A stretch of 60,244 nt of DNA, counting the filler, from Deltaproteobacteria bacterium (GTDB taxonomy: Bacteria > Myxococcota > JACRCW01), in the NCBI GenBank assembly GCA_016218805.1. It is 3 parts of 3 records of this genome, joined end to end, with 100 filler letters (N's around TTAATTAATTAA, not from the genome) between each part and the next. Parts side by side here need not be neighbours in the genome. Positions count along the whole stretch, not along the records: positions 41,693 to 60,244 come from JACRCW010000138.1; 2 more parts are not named here. One strand, given 5' to 3'. The notes beneath the pieces are model-generated. The model ran no database searches. It was not told where the DNA came from and worked only from the letters and a program-made list of their open reading frames with translations. A program made the translations under genes and the position numbers. Positions 3,181-47,631 of the stretch are shown here, in pieces; within the stretch, counting starts at the first letter, position 1, and the number at the start of each line of letters is the position of its first letter.

Positions 3181-5277
3181 TCACCCGCCGGTGCGCGGCT
3201 CCAGGTGGGCGGGGATGATGGACTCGCCCTTCACGGTGAAGACCTGCAGGGGGGCCACGGCGTTGCCCTGGGCATCCACGGAGGTGGGGCCGCAAATGCC
3301 GGGGAAATCCTTGATGGCCTGGAGTTTGTCTCTGAATTCGGTGCGGGTCTTGGGGTTCTGCACAAACACCGCGCCCAGCATGCGCCCCGCGTCAAACGCC
3401 TGCGCATCGCGCAGTTCGCCCTTGAGCCCGCCGGTGGCGGCGGCAAACTTCTTGAGGAAGTCCAGCGTCTCCGGCCGCCCGTCATTGGGGTTGAACCCGT
3501 CCACAAACAGCGCCCCCTGCACGTATTTGCCGCCGCGCTGCGGGAAGGTCTTGTCGTTGAAGCCGTTGGTTCCCAGCAGCGTGACCTTCTGGACCTTCAC
3601 CGCGCCGGTGGTTTCCTTGAACTGCCGGAGCGAACGCTCGTCATTGCCCACAAACACGTCCTCAAACGCCAGCGCCGGCGCAATGAGCCCCGCGGGCTTG
3701 TGATAGTCCGCAATGAACAGGGCCTCAAAGTCCACAATGGGCCGCACCCCGTCCTTGCAGGCCTCCAGCGCCTTCTGTTTCTTGTAGGCCGCCTCCAGCT
3801 TCCTGGCTTCGGCCTGGCAGGCCAGGAAGTCCCCGCGCGCCTCCAGGAAATGCCGGCCCACCAGCTTGCGCACCGGCACGGCAAACGTCGTCTCGTCATG
3901 GTCATACGCTTCCACGCCGGCCACGCTCCCGCCGCGGGATTCAAACTCATCCCAGAACGCGTTCATCAGCGCGGCACCCTTGGGCAGGCGCGGGTACAGG
4001 AACGCCACGCGCTTGAATCCCAGCGTTTCGGACGCAATGCGCGCCATTTCCCGGGCCTGGCGCTCATCCGAAAGGGCCACCTGGAAGGTGAAAGGCCCCA
4101 TTTCCGCGATCCCGTCACGCCGGGACAACGTCAACAGCGGGACCTTGGCGGCCTCCGCGCGCATGGCGGCGGGGCGGGCGCCCTGCAGCGTCACCGCACC
4201 CACCACGGCCATCACGCGCTTTTCGGTGATCAGCAGATCCAGCGCGGCGGCGGCGTCCTCCGGGCCGCTGGTGTCATCCAGGACCTCCACCTCCACGGGC
4301 GCGGGTGGCGGGTTGGTCTGCCCGCGGGCAATGGCGTCAGACACGGCGGCTTCCAGGCCCAGCTTGAGGGCGGCCAGCAACCGCTCCCCGGTCTGCGCGT
4401 ACTTCCCGGACGTGGGGAGGACCACGCCCAGGCGGTTGGCCACGACGGTGGTGCGGATGTCCAGGATCTGCAGCGCGGCCTGCGCGGAGGTGAGGAAGGC
4501 GCCCTGCGGCTCCGCGGCCACGTAGGCCTTCAGCTCCTCCATGGCGCGCACGTCATCACCCAGGTGCAGGTAGATGCGGCCCAGCTTGAGGGTGAGCAGG
4601 TGGTGGGTCCAACTGGTGGCGGGGAGCTGCTCCCGCAGCGCCAGCACCTCCGCAAAGCGCAGCCGCCCGTCAATGATCTCCTGCAGCATGGCGCGCAACG
4701 GGTCACGCACGGCCGCGTCGGTGGTGCCCGCCTCGGCGGTGGACAGCGGCACCACCGCCCCGGCGAATTGCCCCGATTCATAGAGCGCGCGTCCCATCTT
4801 CTGCGAATAGGCGAGTTTCTCCGGGCCCTGCATCTGCTCCAGCGCACTGCGCAGGCCGCTGACGCCCTCCGCGGTGCGTCCGTCCTCCAGGTCCATGCTG
4901 GCCAGCAGGAGTTTGGCGTCCTTGGCGGCGGGGTCCCCCGGGTGGTTGAGCGCCAGGGTCTCCAGCGCGCGGCGCGCGGTGTCACGCTGCTCCAGCTGGT
5001 GGGCAATCTGCCCGGCGGCCAGCAGGGCGCCGGGGGCCTGCGGAGCGCGGGGATGGTCCCGGGCAAACGCTTCAAACAGGGCCAGCGCGTCCTGCAGGCG
5101 GCCCTCCGCGCGCGCGCGCTCCGCCCCGGCCAGCGTGGCGTTCCCGGCCCCCGGCTGCACCACGGGCTCCCCCGCGGACGGGCGGGGCTGCGCCGTCCGT
5201 GACGGGCACGCGGCGGTCCCCAGCAGGGCCAGCAGGAGGACGGGGCGGAGAAAACGGGCGGTGGAGGGGCGGGACAT
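3181..5277 (-). CDS. TPR + periplasmic-binding-protein lipoprotein (LpoA/LppC-like PBP activator)
   Basis: Lipobox LGTAAC, TPR-like helices, LGVVLPTSG, VVGAV, DFEALFIAD, AQAFDA and FPGICG motifs. Confidence 0.8.
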   Translation of the reverse strand: MSRPSTARFLRPVLLLALLGTAACPSRTAQPRPSAGEPVVQPGAGNATLAGAERARAEGRLQDALALFEAFARDHPRAPQAPGALLAAGQIAHQLEQRDTARRALETLALNHPGDPAAKDAKLLLASMDLEDGRTAEGVSGLRSALEQMQGPEKLAYSQKMGRALYESGQFAGAVVPLSTAEAGTTDAAVRDPLRAMLQEIIDGRLRFAEVLALREQLPATSWTHHLLTLKLGRIYLHLGDDVRAMEELKAYVAAEPQGAFLTSAQAALQILDIRTTVVANRLGVVLPTSGKYAQTGERLLAALKLGLEAAVSDAIARGQTNPPPAPVEVEVLDDTSGPEDAAAALDLLITEKRVMAVVGAVTLQGARPAAMRAEAAKVPLLTLSRRDGIAEMGPFTFQVALSDERQAREMARIASETLGFKRVAFLYPRLPKGAALMNAFWDEFESRGGSVAGVEAYDHDETTFAVPVRKLVGRHFLEARGDFLACQAEARKLEAAYKKQKALEACKDGVRPIVDFEALFIADYHKPAGLIAPALAFEDVFVGNDERSLRQFKETTGAVKVQKVTLLGTNGFNDKTFPQRGGKYVQGALFVDGFNPNDGRPETLDFLKKFAAATGGLKGELRDAQAFDAGRMLGAVFVQNPKTRTEFRDKLQAIKDFPGICGPTSVDAQGNAVAPLQVFTVKGESIIPAHLEPRTGG

Positions 5278-28594: not shown

Positions 28595-28694
28595 NNNNNN
28601 NNNNNNNNNNNNNNNNNNNNNNNNNNNNNNNNNNNNNNTTAATTAATTAANNNNNNNNNNNNNNNNNNNNNNNNNNNNNNNNNNNNNNNNNNNN
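28595..28694. other. artificial contig linker
   Basis: 44 N + TTAATTAATTAA (stops in all six frames) + 44 N. Confidence 0.98.
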
Positions 28695-40208: not shown

Positions 40209-40574
40209 TCAGGCCGTGCGCACGGGAATCTGGCGCGGCTTGAGGCTCTCCTGCTTGGGCAGGTGGACGGTGAGCACCCCGTCCTTGAGTTCCGCGGCGA
40301 TCTTGGCTGCGTCCACGCCACCGGGCATCACAAACGTGCGGGTCCACTCGTGGTCCAGCGCGTCGTCGCCGCGGGCGCTGAAGCGGCCCACCAGCGCCAG
40401 CGTGTTCTTCTCAAACTGCACGTCCACGTCCTCCTGCCGGACGCCGGGGAAGTCCGCGCGGATGAGAAACTCCTCGCGGTTCTCCAGCACGTCCACGGGC
40501 GGCACCAGCGCGGTGCGGCGCGCCATGCGTTCCGGCCGGGTCTCGGTGGTTTCCTGCTTCTGCATCGTCGTCAT
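40209..40574 (-). CDS. Hsp20/alpha-crystallin small heat-shock protein
   Basis: PPVDVLE, ADFPGV and AELKDGVLTVHLPK motifs; AAGGAG SD. Confidence 0.93.
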   Translation of the reverse strand: MTTMQKQETTETRPERMARRTALVPPVDVLENREEFLIRADFPGVRQEDVDVQFEKNTLALVGRFSARGDDALDHEWTRTFVMPGGVDAAKIAAELKDGVLTVHLPKQESLKPRQIPVRTA

Positions 40575-40612
40575 GGTTGCGTCTCCTTGAGCAGTGGGGT
40601 CGGGAAGTGGGG

Positions 40613-41056
40613 TCACTCGGCGCGCACGCGGATCTGGCGCGGCTGGGCTTCAGCGGCCTTGGGCAGCGTGAGCGTGAGCACGCCCTGCTTCACCATGGCG
40701 GTGGCCTTCTCCGCGTCCACGCGCGTGTTGAGCGCGTAACTGCGGGAGAAGCGCGCGGTGCCGCGCTCCTGGCGGTGCACCTGGTAGCCCGGCGGCACGG
40801 CGGTCTTGCGCTCGCCGCTGAGCGTCACCACGTCCTGGTTGAGCGTGACGGTGACGTCCTTCTCGCCCAGCCCGGGGATCTCCGCCCGGATCACCAGTGC
40901 GCCGCCCTTGTCCTCCACGGTGGTGCGCGGCCAGCCGGCGTACGTCCCGTCCACCGTGGCGTCGTCCTCGTACTGGTCCCACAGCTCGTCCATGCGGCGG
41001 CGGAATTCGTTGAGCATGGGGGTCATCCGGTCCAATTCAGCAAAGCTCCTCAGCAT
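40613..41056 (-). CDS. Hsp20/alpha-crystallin small heat-shock protein
   Basis: AEIPG, RQERGTARFSRS and GVLTLTLPK motifs; GGAGGGAG SD. Confidence 0.93.
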   Translation of the reverse strand: MLRSFAELDRMTPMLNEFRRRMDELWDQYEDDATVDGTYAGWPRTTVEDKGGALVIRAEIPGLGEKDVTVTLNQDVVTLSGERKTAVPPGYQVHRQERGTARFSRSYALNTRVDAEKATAMVKQGVLTLTLPKAAEAQPRQIRVRAE

Positions 41057-41140
41057 GATGGTCTCCCTCCGCAGGCCTGATCCGGGCCCGCGCGCGTTTC
41101 CGGCCACCCCCGGGGGGGGCGGCGGCGTCTGTGGAAAATC

Positions 41141-41181
41141 CTGACGGCGCCTCAAGTAAGCACCCGCCTACAGGTGTCAAG
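41141..41181 (-). promoter_or_regulatory. putative promoter/operator of the hsp20 pair
   Basis: Minus strand TTGACA (41180-41175)-16 nt-TACTTG, overlapping the imperfect palindrome CTTGA-ggcgccg-TCAGG. Confidence 0.4.
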
Positions 41182-41592: not shown

Positions 41593-41692
41593 NNNNNNNN
41601 NNNNNNNNNNNNNNNNNNNNNNNNNNNNNNNNNNNNTTAATTAATTAANNNNNNNNNNNNNNNNNNNNNNNNNNNNNNNNNNNNNNNNNNNN
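41593..41692. other. artificial contig linker
   Basis: 44 N + TTAATTAATTAA + 44 N. Confidence 0.98.
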
Positions 41693-43155: not shown

Positions 43156-44094
43156 TCACCGCTGCGCCTTGCGGGCCGCCTCCACCAGCGTGGCCAGCGC
43201 ATCCAGCGCGGTGACGGGCGCTTCCCGGACTTCGCCCTGCTCGCTGTAGGTGGGGACCGGCAGGTCCGCGGGCGCCTCCAACCGCGGCGGCGGCGGCGCG
43301 GCCGCCACCTGCTTGGCCCCTGCCAATGACGACGCCTGCGCCAGGTACGGCCCCATGTTGGCACTGCCCTGGCCCAGCATCTCCATGGGCACCGGCAGCA
43401 CCACCGTGGTGTTCTGGTTGACGCTGACCTCCACCAGCGTCTGGTACAGCCGCAGCTGCATGGCGCCGGGGTGCACCGCCATCACCTCCGCCGCGGCGGC
43501 CAGCGTGCGCGCTGCCTGCTCTTCGCCCTGCGCGGCAATCACCTTGGCGCGGCGCTCGCGCTCCGCCTCCGCCTGCCGGGCCATGGCGCGCTTCATCTCC
43601 TGCGGCAGCACAATGTCCCGCAGCTCCACCGCGCTGATCTCCACGCCCCACTGCTCGGTGCGCTGGTCCAGGATGCTGCGAATCTCCTCATTGATCTTGT
43701 CCCGCTTGGAGAGGATCTCATCCAGGTCCATCCGCCCCAGCACGCCGCGCAGCGTGGTGGACGCCAGCTGCATGGTGGCGTCCAGGTACTCCTCCACCGC
43801 CAGCACCGCTTCCTTGGGCGCCTTCACGTCGGCGTAGACCACCGCATCCACCTTGATGCTGATGTTGTCCGCCGTGATGATCTCCTGCGGCTGGATGGGA
43901 ATGGCCTTGATGCGGATGTCCACCACCTTCATGCGGTCCATGCCCAGCGGCAGCAGGAACGCTACCCCCGGCCCCGCCATCTCCTTGCGCGCCCGCCCCA
44001 GGCGGAACACCACGCCGCGTTCGTACTCACGCAGAATGCGGAACCCGGTAAGGACCGTGACGCCAACACCAATGAGCAGAGCTTCCAGGATCAT
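43156..44094 (-). CDS. SPFH/stomatin (slipin) family protein
   Basis: EYERGVVFRLG, TTLRGVLG, AMARQAEAERERRAKVIAA and AMQLR motifs; GGAGGT SD. Confidence 0.93.
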   Translation of the reverse strand: MILEALLIGVGVTVLTGFRILREYERGVVFRLGRARKEMAGPGVAFLLPLGMDRMKVVDIRIKAIPIQPQEIITADNISIKVDAVVYADVKAPKEAVLAVEEYLDATMQLASTTLRGVLGRMDLDEILSKRDKINEEIRSILDQRTEQWGVEISAVELRDIVLPQEMKRAMARQAEAERERRAKVIAAQGEEQAARTLAAAAEVMAVHPGAMQLRLYQTLVEVSVNQNTTVVLPVPMEMLGQGSANMGPYLAQASSLAGAKQVAAAPPPPRLEAPADLPVPTYSEQGEVREAPVTALDALATLVEAARKAQR

Positions 44095-44309
44095 GCCGCC
44101 ACCTCCCGTGAGGACCGGCAGCCTAGTACCGCTCCCCGGGGAAAGGTGCTTGTGGGCGGGCTTCTGCGCCGCGGGCGCCACGGCGCCGTGGAATGGAGCC
44201 GCAGAGGGGCCCACGGGTTTTCCGCGCGCTCCTTGTAGGGCGGGGCTGGGAAGGACGCCCGCCTTCCCCGGAACACCCCAGCCCCGCCGGGCAGCGTCCG
44301 CACCGGCGG

Positions 44310-44431
44310 ATGAGCAGGCGCAGAACTTGGGCCGGGCTGGGCTTGGGAAGGTGGTGGAATCGGTCGCGTGTGTGTCGGGCGGCCGCACCGGTTGGGATAG
44401 GACGCCCTCCCTCCGCGGAAGGTGTCACACC
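44310..44431 (+). repeat. ~120-bp non-coding direct repeat, copy 1
   Basis: First 61 nt match copy 2 (47509 onward) at 58/61; similarity continues with small indels to ...gaaggtgtcaca. Confidence 0.9.
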
Positions 44432-44437
44432 AGCCCA

Positions 44438-44953
44438 TCAGCCGTTGGCGGGGGGGATGCCCGGGGGCGCCTTGGTGCCGCGGCTCGCGCGCGTCTTGAT
44501 GAACTCCGCCAGGAACGCAAACCGCTCCGCAAGCTCCGGGTGGTCGTCCGCCATCGCCCTGGCCAGTTCGTGGACCTTCAGGCACGTGCGCCAGACCTTG
44601 TCGTCGTAGGCCACCCGGGCGCCGCCCGCTTTGGCCAGGTCACGCGCCAGGCGTTCCTCGTCCTTCTGCAGCGCACTCGAATGCCCCAGCATCTCCTTCA
44701 TCTGGGCAGGCGTCAGCCCCAGCCGCGGCAGCACGTCAGCCATCTCAATGACGCCGTCCACCACCAGCGCTGCGCACTCCTCGTAATCGCGCGGCGGGTA
44801 GACCGGGTTGGCGGGCATCGGGACGATGGGCGCGCTGAACCCCGAGTTCGTGCGCGCCACCGCCGCCCCCTTTGCCGGGCGCTTCGTCCGCGCCATGGGT
44901 CCCCGCCGGGACACCTTCTTCTTGGCCACTTTCTTCTTCTTCTTCACCGCCAT
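44438..44953 (-). CDS. hypothetical 171-aa protein with Lys/Arg-rich N-terminus and helical core
   Basis: Strong GGAGGAG SD, MAVKKKKKVAKKKVSRR start, high GC3. Confidence 0.85.
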   Translation of the reverse strand: MAVKKKKKVAKKKVSRRGPMARTKRPAKGAAVARTNSGFSAPIVPMPANPVYPPRDYEECAALVVDGVIEMADVLPRLGLTPAQMKEMLGHSSALQKDEERLARDLAKAGGARVAYDDKVWRTCLKVHELARAMADDHPELAERFAFLAEFIKTRASRGTKAPPGIPPANG

Positions 44954-45031
44954 GGTCTCCTCCATTGGGCTGCATCCGTGCAGCAGGACCCTCATACACC
45001 ATCTCCCCCGTGGTGGGACCCCCCCGATCGG

Positions 45032-45237
45032 GGGGTCTCACCCCCTCAGGCATGGGGTCTCACCCCATCGGGTAGGGGATCACACCCCCTCGGGCAGGGG
45101 GTCACACCCCATCGGGCAGGGGGTCACACCCCATCGGGCAGGGGGTCACACCCCCTCGGGCATGGGGTCACACCCCCTCGGGCAGGGGGTCACACCCCCT
45201 CGGGCAGGGGGTCACACCCCCTCGGGCATGGGGTCTA
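45032..45237. repeat. tandem array of nine 22-bp palindromic units
   Basis: Units start at 45032, 45054, 45076, 45098, 45120, 45142, 45164, 45186 and 45208; consensus GGGGTCACACCCC(C/A)TCGGGCA(G/T). Confidence 0.97.
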
Positions 45238-47181
45238 CCGGCCGCGCCGCCGCCACCGGACCACCAGGCCCAGGAACAGCATGTACCCCAGCACGTTCGT
45301 GTCGGCGCAGTAGGAGTAGGTCTGGGTGGCCGCGCACGCCGCCTCCAGGCACACGCCGTCGGAACACGTGGCGCCGGCCGCGCACTGCTCGGACACTTCG
45401 CAGGACGCGCCGAGCGCCAGGCGCACCTGGCACACCGCACCGCCGTCTCCCCAACCGCAGTACGCCTCCGGCACGCAGCCTCCCTGGGACCCGCACGCCT
45501 GGCCCAGTGACCGCAGCGGGAGGCAGTGCAACTCGCTGCTGGCGTCGGGGTAGCCGCACCGGCTGTCGCGGCACTCGTAGTAGTAGCGGCAGGGTTCCCC
45601 CAGCGCGGGACCGGTCACGCACGTCCCCTCGCCCCCATCCCACGCGCACTGGAACCCCGGCGAGCACGCACCCATGCACGCATCCCCCGCCACGCCGCGC
45701 TCCGGGAGGTAGCAGCGGCCCACGCCGCCGTCGGTGGTCGCCGTGCACTGCGGGATGTCACCCACGTCCAGGTCGTAGCGGCACTGCGGCGGCACGTCCT
45801 GGCGCGCGCCGCACGCCTGCCCCAGGCGGGCGGGTGGCAGGCACGTTCCTTCGGTGGCGGACGCCGCCGGGCGCGCGCACGTGAAGCCCCACCGGCAGGT
45901 CCCCCGCGTCCCAAACGACGACGCCGGCGCCCGGCAGCCCGCTCCCACTTCGCCCGGGGCCTGGCACACCGGGGGATTGCCCGCGCACACCAGGCCGCCC
46001 CGGCAGTCATGCACGGGGTCCGCGCCGGACAGGTCATCCGTGCACGCCTCTCCCAGCGCCTTGCCCTGCACGCACGTCCCGTTGAAGCACACGCCCGGCG
46101 GGGCGCACCGGGCCGCGGTGCAGGGCTGGCCCACCAGGGCCGGCGCCGTGCAGGCGCCAGCGCCCCACGGCTCGGGCACGCGCGCACACAACAGGCACGC
46201 CTCGCATTCAGAATCACTGGTGCAGGTCTCACCCGCACCGGCCGGCGGGTGGCAGCGCCCGCCGCGACATACCAGCTCCTGCGCGCAATCCGTGGGCGCC
46301 TGGCAGCCCGCGTCCGCGCCCAGCCGGTCCCCGCATACGCCGCTGGAGCTGCACACCAGGCCCGTTTCACAGCTCTGCGCCGGCGGGTTGACCGCCTGGC
46401 AAGGTTGCCCGCGCGCGCCGGGCCGAATGCAGGTTCCCTCCGCCCCACTCCACGGCGCCGAGCAGGCCAGGCCCCGCGCGCACAGCCGGGCGCGCGGCAG
46501 GCCGCAGGGTTCGCCCTCCGTGGCGCTGGGGACGCAGTGCCCCTGGCAGCCCGCGCCGATGTCCACGCAGCTGGCGCCGCCGTCCCCGGGCGCGCATTCC
46601 ACGTGGTGCCCGCACGGCTCACCCAGCGGTTGCAGGCCGCGCACAAAGTCCAGGCACGCCGGCGGCAGGGTCAGCGCCAGCGCCCCCGCGGCCGCCGCCC
46701 GCTCCAGGAACGCCGCGTGGGAGCCGTCAGGCGCCAGTTCCGCCACGCCCAGGCGGTCGCACTCGGCCGCCAGCGGTGCGTCGTACGTCACGCGCCCGCG
46801 GTCCATCCCGTCCCGAATGACCTTCATGCTGGTCTGCCAATACCGGCGGTACGCTTCCACCTGGGTGTCGTCGGTTGGGGCGCCGTCGCACACCGCCTCC
46901 ACGAACCGCTCGTAGTCCACCAGCAGGGCTTCCGCGCGGGCCTCGTCGGACAGGGGCTGGAACCAGGGACAGGTCCCGGAGCGGCGGCTCTCCTCAAAGC
47001 CCAGGTAGGCAGCCTGGAACGCGGCCATCCCCACCGCGGTCTGCCGGCACAGCCCGTCCAGCGGGCTGCTGCCGCCCCCCGACGATGATGATGACGACGA
47101 GGTGCGCTCATCACCCGGGGCGCACGCTGCCCCGGACACCGCCGCCAACACGCACCACCCCACCCGCGCTGCCAGTCCCAT
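45235..47181 (-). CDS. Cys-rich repeat surface lipoprotein with C-terminal Cys-TM-Arg tail
   Basis: SGAAC lipobox, poly-Ser, many GxxC...C repeats; ends YCADTNVLGYMLFLGLVVRWRRRGR. Confidence 0.82.
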   Translation of the reverse strand: MGLAARVGWCVLAAVSGAACAPGDERTSSSSSSSGGGSSPLDGLCRQTAVGMAAFQAAYLGFEESRRSGTCPWFQPLSDEARAEALLVDYERFVEAVCDGAPTDDTQVEAYRRYWQTSMKVIRDGMDRGRVTYDAPLAAECDRLGVAELAPDGSHAAFLERAAAAGALALTLPPACLDFVRGLQPLGEPCGHHVECAPGDGGASCVDIGAGCQGHCVPSATEGEPCGLPRARLCARGLACSAPWSGAEGTCIRPGARGQPCQAVNPPAQSCETGLVCSSSGVCGDRLGADAGCQAPTDCAQELVCRGGRCHPPAGAGETCTSDSECEACLLCARVPEPWGAGACTAPALVGQPCTAARCAPPGVCFNGTCVQGKALGEACTDDLSGADPVHDCRGGLVCAGNPPVCQAPGEVGAGCRAPASSFGTRGTCRWGFTCARPAASATEGTCLPPARLGQACGARQDVPPQCRYDLDVGDIPQCTATTDGGVGRCYLPERGVAGDACMGACSPGFQCAWDGGEGTCVTGPALGEPCRYYYECRDSRCGYPDASSELHCLPLRSLGQACGSQGGCVPEAYCGWGDGGAVCQVRLALGASCEVSEQCAAGATCSDGVCLEAACAATQTYSYCADTNVLGYMLFLGLVVRWRRRGR

Positions 47182-47508: not shown

Positions 47509-47631
47509 ATGAGCAGGCGCAGGACTCGGGCCGGGCTGGGCTTGGGAGGGTGGTGGAATCGGTCGCGTGGTGTTGGGCGGCGGCCGCGCCGGTTGGGAAG
47601 GACGCCCCTCTCTCCGCGAAAAGTGTCTCAT
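47509..47631 (+). repeat. ~120-bp non-coding direct repeat, copy 2
   Basis: atgagcaggcgcag...ggtggtggaatcggtcgcgtg...aggacgccc...ctccgcg..aagtgtc aligns with 44310-44429. Confidence 0.9.

Follow-up and report, generated by a model that had tools for sequence, protein, structure and literature searches.

How does a small protein with a strongly basic N-terminus relate to the 22-bp tandem array that lies directly upstream of its gene, and do gene and array belong together? The locus that raises this question lies in a 60,244-nucleotide stretch of a Deltaproteobacteria bacterium genome (here called the window). The window consists of contigs C105, C106, and C108 joined end to end, with N-padded joins at 28595-28694 and 41593-41692; genes on the two sides of a join are therefore not neighbors. 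The protein, P0001, is encoded on the part that comes from C108, in a genome (G000) of 6.43 Mb and 70% GC. The features of the locus are listed below, each with its basis.

44438..44953, minus strand: gene of the array-associated long-helix family (P0001), 171 aa (ORF, homologues, profile, model)
44867..44953, minus strand: Lys/Arg-rich unstructured N-terminal tail, residues 1-29, net charge +14, a subfamily feature (charge count, family alignment, model)
44555..44710, minus strand: 52-residue amphipathic helix, residues 82-133, about 78 Å long, with conserved R113, W121, and R122 (model, alignment)
44959..44963, minus strand: Shine-Dalgarno sequence GGAGG, 5 nt before the ATG (sequence)
45016..45235, no strand assigned: 22-bp tandem array made up of 9 regular units and one palindromic unit at its end (repeat scan, unit analysis)
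45235..47181, minus strand: gene for a Cys-rich lipoprotein-like protein of 648 aa, upstream local neighbor, whose stop codon abuts the first array unit (gene model)
43156..44094, minus strand: SPFH/Band 7 gene, downstream local neighbor (neighborhood comparison)
44310..44430, no strand assigned: "direct-repeat copy 1," which belongs to a separate family of dispersed repeats and lies outside the element (recurrence, related population)

The P0001 gene, its array, and its neighbors

The P0001 ORF is a real gene. Its reading frame runs on the minus strand from 44953 to 44438, and the 171-aa translation contains the N-terminus and core quoted in the preliminary description as exact matches. The strong Shine-Dalgarno sequence reported there is also in place, as GGAGG at 44963-44959. 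GC content at codon positions 1/2/3 is 0.68/0.49/0.90, and a hexamer gene model trained on the same genome preferred this frame over those that overlap it. In a variant contig of low depth, 3 nt are inserted at 44519-44521 and the frame is kept.

The regular part of the array (45031-45235) contains 9.3 copies with 91% matches. Each unit comprises a quasi-palindrome of ~17 bp and 5 variable bases, and the units repeat head-to-tail; counting the last, degenerate palindromic unit, the array ends 62 bp before the P0001 ATG. A scan for sigma-70 promoters found none, Rfam gave no match for the array, and searches with the array motif in GTDB genomes, viral contigs, and the three nearest relatives came back empty. 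The lipoprotein-like ORF at 45235-47181 shows weak EB/Dickkopf-like repeats.

On its other side, P0001 had been described as flanked by direct-repeat copy 1. Further copies of this repeat (44310-44430) occur at 47509-47630 and on no fewer than four other contigs (C66, C167, C97, and C78). It is also absent from a related population, represented by a single contig, about 90% identical and of depth 6, from run X1, which may be the run from which the DNA studied here derives. In that contig position 44106 is joined to 44436, and the P0001 gene lies about 36 bp from the SPFH start. Its dispersal and its absence from that population led us to leave it out of the element, and likewise to reject a composite element bounded by the 44310 and 47509 repeats. 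The repeats form a dispersed, REP/MITE-like family of ~150 bp. A long palindrome, conserved at its core, closes the fuller copies; the 44310 copy breaks off within this palindrome. A second family of dispersed intergenic repeats, also missing from the run X1 population, is present at 44121-44245 and on contigs C96, C132, C44, C91, and C141.

Several other features were seen in passing. Two tandem ORFs at 40209-41155 resemble small heat-shock (Hsp20-type) genes by eye. Elsewhere in the genome, CRISPR-like arrays with periods of 61-73 and 122 bp occur at C59:44293-45848, C97:34755-35027, and C113:35552-36069, and those on C59 adjoin ORFs that look Cas2-like and WYL-like by eye.

A protein family with a helical core

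P0001 was initially called an orphan, a label that did not survive homology searches. A word-indexed search returned 3 close homologues (59-72% identity), and an exhaustive search of 50% representatives gave 17 matches, including 13 usable distant ones; the repeat proteins P0005 and P0014 were dropped, and the 13 distant and 4 close sequences were aligned. P0001 also has two distant paralogues in its own genome, detected by profile on C140 (E = 2e-24) and C129 (E = 6e-9), while same-genome paralogues were not significant in tblastn. With a 28-sequence profile, members were found in 15 of 301 genomes of the phylum, at up to 12 per genome, and one divergent member pointed to a protein annotated as "hypothetical protein" on a plasmid of Thiodictyon. 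Viral contigs contained no relatives when searched with the close-homologue alignment, nor did phage records when queried with the L009 member. No longer or fused forms were present among 8000 candidates, which is weak evidence. One member, L015 (G006:C10), shares a single open frame with a DJ-1/PfpI domain (PF01965) at the C-terminus and may be a fusion.

The preliminary description had recognized no enzyme or helix-turn-helix (HTH) motif in the protein, and the wider searches agree: no HTH or other regulator fold was found with family libraries and fold searches, nor any nuclease fold for the family. Neither Pfam, PHROGs, and PADLOC (17 members each, with a Pfam limit of E ≤ 0.1 for P0001) nor NCBIfam (28 members) assigned P0001 to a characterized family, and a few single-member matches to unrelated families in the library scans were treated as noise. 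The best PDB match by sequence was a designed protein (E = 0.036), and fold searches in PDB, VIA-wide, and BFVD returned generic helical hairpins only (best Z of 5.9). Matches in the ESM Atlas were confined to unnamed clusters, from Myxococcota (155-187 aa; score 0.92-0.93) and, at 205 aa, from Bacteroidota (TM of 0.63 for the core). A literature search with subscription journals and supplements outside its scope gave no account of the protein family or of such arrays.

The helical core proposed earlier agrees with an AlphaFold2 model of P0001 built on the 17-sequence alignment (pLDDT about 90 over residues 51-150). The model is all-helical, with helices at residues 57-70, 82-133, 139-144, and 146-157, and both termini are unstructured. 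R113 and W121 are invariant across the 17 aligned sequences. The long helix has almost no charge moment, and its hydrophobic stripe is conserved. The conserved part of the family is this core and not the tail.

A net charge of at least +12 within the first 30 residues is found in only 6 of the 5039 predicted proteins of the genome. Lys-rich N-termini are also present on unrelated proteins there. Across the family, a strongly basic N-terminus (net charge of at least +8 before the core) occurs in 11 of 28 members and is missing from the other 17, and most array-bearing members with readable DNA lack it. The core itself is slightly acidic (net charge of −3 and pI of 5.6 for P0001 residues 41-160; median net charge of −1 for the family core). 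"Histone-like" is therefore not a defining feature of the protein, and a tail confined to one subfamily argues only weakly for nucleic-acid binding. A very short ORF at C35:7520-7625 encodes almost only Lys and Ala, like a free-standing histone-H1-like peptide, and its composition is like that of the P0001 tail.

Arrays beside family genes and their gene-less copies

Family loci were compiled from 15 genomes, one metagenome contig, and one plasmid. The resulting 46 distinct loci include that of P0001; identical proteins were counted once, and two contig-edge fragments from the genome profile search were left out. Each locus was scored by its best 66-bp self-match at lags of 21, 22, 42, 43, and 44 in the 500 bp on each side of the gene. 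At a threshold of 0.6, 24 of 46 loci scored positive (19 upstream and 5 downstream of the gene). One of these, L006, is a low-complexity repeat and was discounted, giving 23 of 46 loci with a 21/22/42-44-bp array within 500 bp. In contrast, none of the 46 reached the threshold at 12 other lags, and none did so in far windows 0.9-1.4 kb away (for 8 loci just one side could be scored); the background was an array near 5.8% of 4402 genes of the same genome. Of the 17 sources, 9 genomes and 1 metagenome contig contribute the array-bearing loci, which are not independent because the genomes are related. All three family genes of the P0001 genome have such an array, and the nearest homologue with available DNA, L017 (59% identity), has a 44-bp array of 3.1 copies about 100 bp upstream, among different neighbors. 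At the threshold, 22 of the 46 loci are without an array, including L007, which has a basic tail. These data show that the protein family is tied to non-coding tandem arrays with a unit of 21-22 or 42-44 bp.

Could this association arise without any contact between protein and array? P0001 might be an ordinary structural coiled-coil protein, possibly a partner of the SPFH protein, with arrays arising by a host process at insertion-tolerant sites where accessory genes collect. Such a passenger role is consistent with the neutral-to-acidic core, with the Lys-rich N-termini of unrelated proteins in this genome, and with the closeness of P0001 to the SPFH gene in the run X1 population. It also fits a genome-wide count in which 20 of 75 arrays lie within 800 bp of an ORF on a hand-picked list of 32 small helical orphans and 55 have none. 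However, an association of about 50% against the 5.8% background, seen in 10 of 17 sources, argues against it. Moreover, no SPFH gene lies beside L017, whose neighbors are membrane proteins, an IS200-like ORF, and a convergent mreB, and arrays stay similar (16-17 of 20 bases) between close protein pairs from one genome or from congeneric genomes. We consider this explanation unlikely. The IS200-like ORF, a Y1 transposase (PF01797) at positions 3560-4130 of the L017 locus, is inserted right after the L017 stop, is enclosed by long inverted repeats, and is itself RAYT/REPIN-like.

We then compared period and sequence. Of 79 non-coding arrays of the genome, 57 have a period of 21, 22, 42, 43, or 44 and none a period of 10-11 or 31-33, and no one-turn (10/11-bp) sub-period was found within arrays. 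The array quantum is accordingly about 21.5 bp. In duplex DNA, 21-22 bp corresponds to two helical turns and 42-44 bp to four. The unit sequence behaves differently: the P0001 and L017 arrays agree at 13 of 20 bases, equal to the 95th percentile of shuffled units (13), and array similarity did not track protein similarity over the 23 loci (Mantel P = 0.91). Only the two closest protein pairs had similar consensus units (17 and 16 matching bases of 20), and co-variation of array and protein sequence beyond very close pairs was rejected. These comparisons show that array sequences are particular to each gene lineage and change faster than the protein does. The earlier proposal that the array is the cognate partner of P0001 thus holds insofar as gene and array are paired across the family (23 of 46 loci versus 0 of 46 in controls); strict sequence-specific cognacy is doubtful, with the L017 array at chance similarity.

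The fixed period also bears on a possible role as RNA, in which the transcribed array would form a leader with a series of hairpins for the protein to bind, by analogy with type III toxin-antitoxin loci or attenuators. The P0001 array would suit such a role: it lies just upstream of the gene, its sense strand folds better than all 200 shuffled versions (z = −4.15), and it ends in a perfect hairpin, while a basic tail suits RNA as well as DNA. Nevertheless, repeats spaced at two or four turns suggest the geometry of duplex DNA, self-complementarity is low in many units of the family (7-14 of 16), and some arrays lie downstream of the gene. Together with the lack of a match in Rfam or, for 17 members, in PADLOC, and of a nuclease fold, this makes an RNA-level module the least probable of the explanations considered here.

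A genome-wide scan identified 75 non-coding arrays with periods of 21, 22, or 42-44 bp, which fall into 20 multi-member families (2-5 members each) and 25 single-member families, unrelated in sequence. The P0001 array family has 5 members, only one of which is beside a family gene; the others, on C163, C162, C128, and (by single linkage only) C114, have no family gene beside them. All have the ~17-bp quasi-palindromic core in common but not the 5 bases that separate one core from the next, and the C163 spacer is the reverse complement of the P0001-array spacer. Likewise, in other genomes 3 of 4 tested gene-adjacent arrays have copies elsewhere, and 10 of 12 such loci lack a family ORF within about 1.5 kb, some of them being near contig ends. 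Copies of a gene's array are thus shown to occur gene-less elsewhere in the same genome. In 9 pairs of gene-adjacent and solo arrays, the homology covers the array, including its degenerate end units, with no separate match in the 500-bp flanks, which suggests that solo arrays arise by copying of the whole array.

The placement of solo arrays speaks to a further alternative, in which P0001 is an autoregulated transcription factor, the array is a helically phased operator before its own gene, and the solo arrays mark its regulon. Family arrays are indeed mostly upstream (19 of 24), for the most part 60-400 bp from the start, and the P0001 array repeats a quasi-palindromic core on one face of the helix. 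Solo arrays, however, avoid divergent, promoter-rich gaps (4/40 versus 466/1172; Fisher P = 5e-5) and lean toward convergent ones (9/40 versus 141/1172; P = 0.08), and those on C163 and C162 sit between the convergent 3′ ends of unrelated genes. This placement is like that of inserted repeats and unlike that of operators. In addition, 5 of 24 family arrays are downstream, the protein has no HTH or other regulator fold, and an operator sequence would be expected to track its protein, which the array sequence does not. Autoregulation therefore seems to us a low-probability account, on a par with the passenger role.

Genes other than P0001 relatives may also accompany arrays. Of the 20 multi-member array families, 10 have exactly one member beside a hand-picked small helical orphan ORF and none has two, although this is not significant (permutation P = 0.13) and depends on a hand-picked list. 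About 20-30 other all-helical orphan ORFs of 210-290 aa lie beside arrays of the genome (L061-L080), one of them weakly DUF6261-like, and 19 of 26 hand-picked ORFs of this longer type have a 21/22/42-44-bp array. By eye they appear to hold two copies of a P0001-like unit, but homology to the P0001 family was not detected: HMM scores did not exceed those of reversed controls, profile-profile comparison was also negative, and a structural model (pLDDT of 49.7) was too poor for fold search. A 21-bp array with its halves in opposite orientation was noted at C1:10861-11162. It lies at the 3′ end of a gene that belongs to a family of 23 paralogues, which by appearance resemble Uma2 endonucleases. 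A crude scan for a reverse-transcriptase motif found nothing, which does not prove that none is present.

Proposed mechanism and comparison with known systems

Taken together, the evidence points to gene and array as two parts of one genetic element of an undescribed class, and P0001 probably, though not provably, binds its array. Our preferred reading, which we put forward tentatively and with somewhat less than even confidence, is that an oligomeric long-helix protein would bind its array at a step of ~22 bp within a spreading gene-plus-array element. The protein would oligomerize through its 52-residue amphipathic helix and bind the double-stranded array DNA cooperatively, one module per unit. 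The helix, at about 78 Å, is close to the 71-75 Å spanned by 21-22 bp, a single numerical coincidence. If one module occupied each unit, the period would be conserved and the sequence free to drift. The Lys-rich tail may serve as an optional, non-specific DNA anchor in one subfamily. Counting against binding are the neutral-to-acidic core, the near absence of a charge moment on the long helix, and the lack of a match to a known DNA-binding fold. Because the protein would be non-catalytic, spreading of the array would need host recombination or an unlinked enzyme, and we identified no target-site duplication or mobilizing enzyme for the element.

A more general version can be proposed, which we regard as speculative and rather doubtful. 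Enzyme-free gene-plus-array elements may be widespread, with a long helix acting as a molecular ruler that binds two- or four-turn tandem DNA of freely changing sequence and helps to maintain or copy it. Some 20-30 genes per genome would then each tend an array family of their own; these genes would belong to the P0001 family and perhaps also to longer helical families of related structure.

Among known systems, the nearest in layout is REPIN/RAYT, described as a low-copy gene beside its own group of short extragenic repeats, with gene-less copies scattered and several groups per genome (PMC3116915; bioRxiv 10.1101/2022.05.22.493013). By that description, the P0001 element shares the arrangement of one gene with several gene-less extragenic repeat copies. 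In contrast, RAYT is an HUH tyrosine transposase, whereas P0001 has an all-helical model and matches neither Y1_Tnp nor any other catalytic family; the same Pfam library finds Y1_Tnp in the true IS200-like ORF of L017 and none in P0001 (E ≤ 0.1). REPINs are inverted doublets in many copies, unlike the P0001-type arrays, which run head-to-tail at a fixed period of 21-22 or 42-44 bp with 2-5 copies per family. By this analysis, the P0001 element resembles RAYT/REPIN in layout and falls outside it in membership, with a putative binding protein in place of the transposase. The 7-bp TAACTGA repeats of Beggiatoaceae are a different case (PMC4679880).

The proposed cooperative, one-face binding invites comparison with plasmid partition and replication systems. 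Plasmid centromeres (R1 parC/ParR and pSK41 parC) and iterons have a phased tandem array just upstream of the gene for a small protein, as is the case here. Unlike these systems, neither P0001 nor L017 has a ParM/ParA or Rep gene nearby. The P0001 model has no strand, and no ribbon-helix-helix or winged-helix fold was matched, although absence from a match list is not exclusion. The P0001 locus is also chromosomal, with several unrelated loci per genome and some arrays downstream, unlike plasmid centromeres.

Bacterial proteins of the histone H1-like, AlgP, and Hc1 types are Lys-Ala-rich and carry a disordered Lys-rich segment. P0001 has such a segment, but here it is limited to 29 residues and adjoins a folded helical core that is slightly acidic, and 17 of the 28 family members lack it altogether. 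DUF6261 (PF19775) and other helical hypothetical proteins of 210-290 aa are, like P0001, all-helical, uncharacterized, multi-copy, and array-adjacent. They are longer, however, and no sequence or profile similarity to the P0001 family was detected: the DUF6261 profile matched 0 of the 17 members of alignment A1, nor the L009 member, and among 20 of the longer helical ORFs it matched 1, below the cut-off.

Type III toxin-antitoxin loci (ToxIN, CptIN, and TenpIN) have tandem repeats and a hairpin upstream of a single gene of ~170 aa, an organization that the P0001 locus shares. The two differ in repeat period, in the all-helical model of P0001, and in the arrays that occur downstream or alone. 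Pfam, NCBIfam, PADLOC, and Rfam, which hold only described families, gave no match to a toxin family or antitoxin RNA.

The dozens of sequence-unrelated, non-coding 21-22/42-44-bp arrays in one genome need a cause, and we found none in the literature; the P0001 family is a concrete candidate reader of such arrays, with a measured association. The locus makes the question directly testable because it offers a clean array, solo copies, and a diverged pair of homologues (P0001 and L017). If the preferred reading is correct, a protein that reads the period of a repeat and not its sequence would be a new kind of DNA recognition, and gene and array together a new type of self-maintaining repeat element. 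Set against the systems above, the P0001 locus is one tractable member of a class that fits no described kind.
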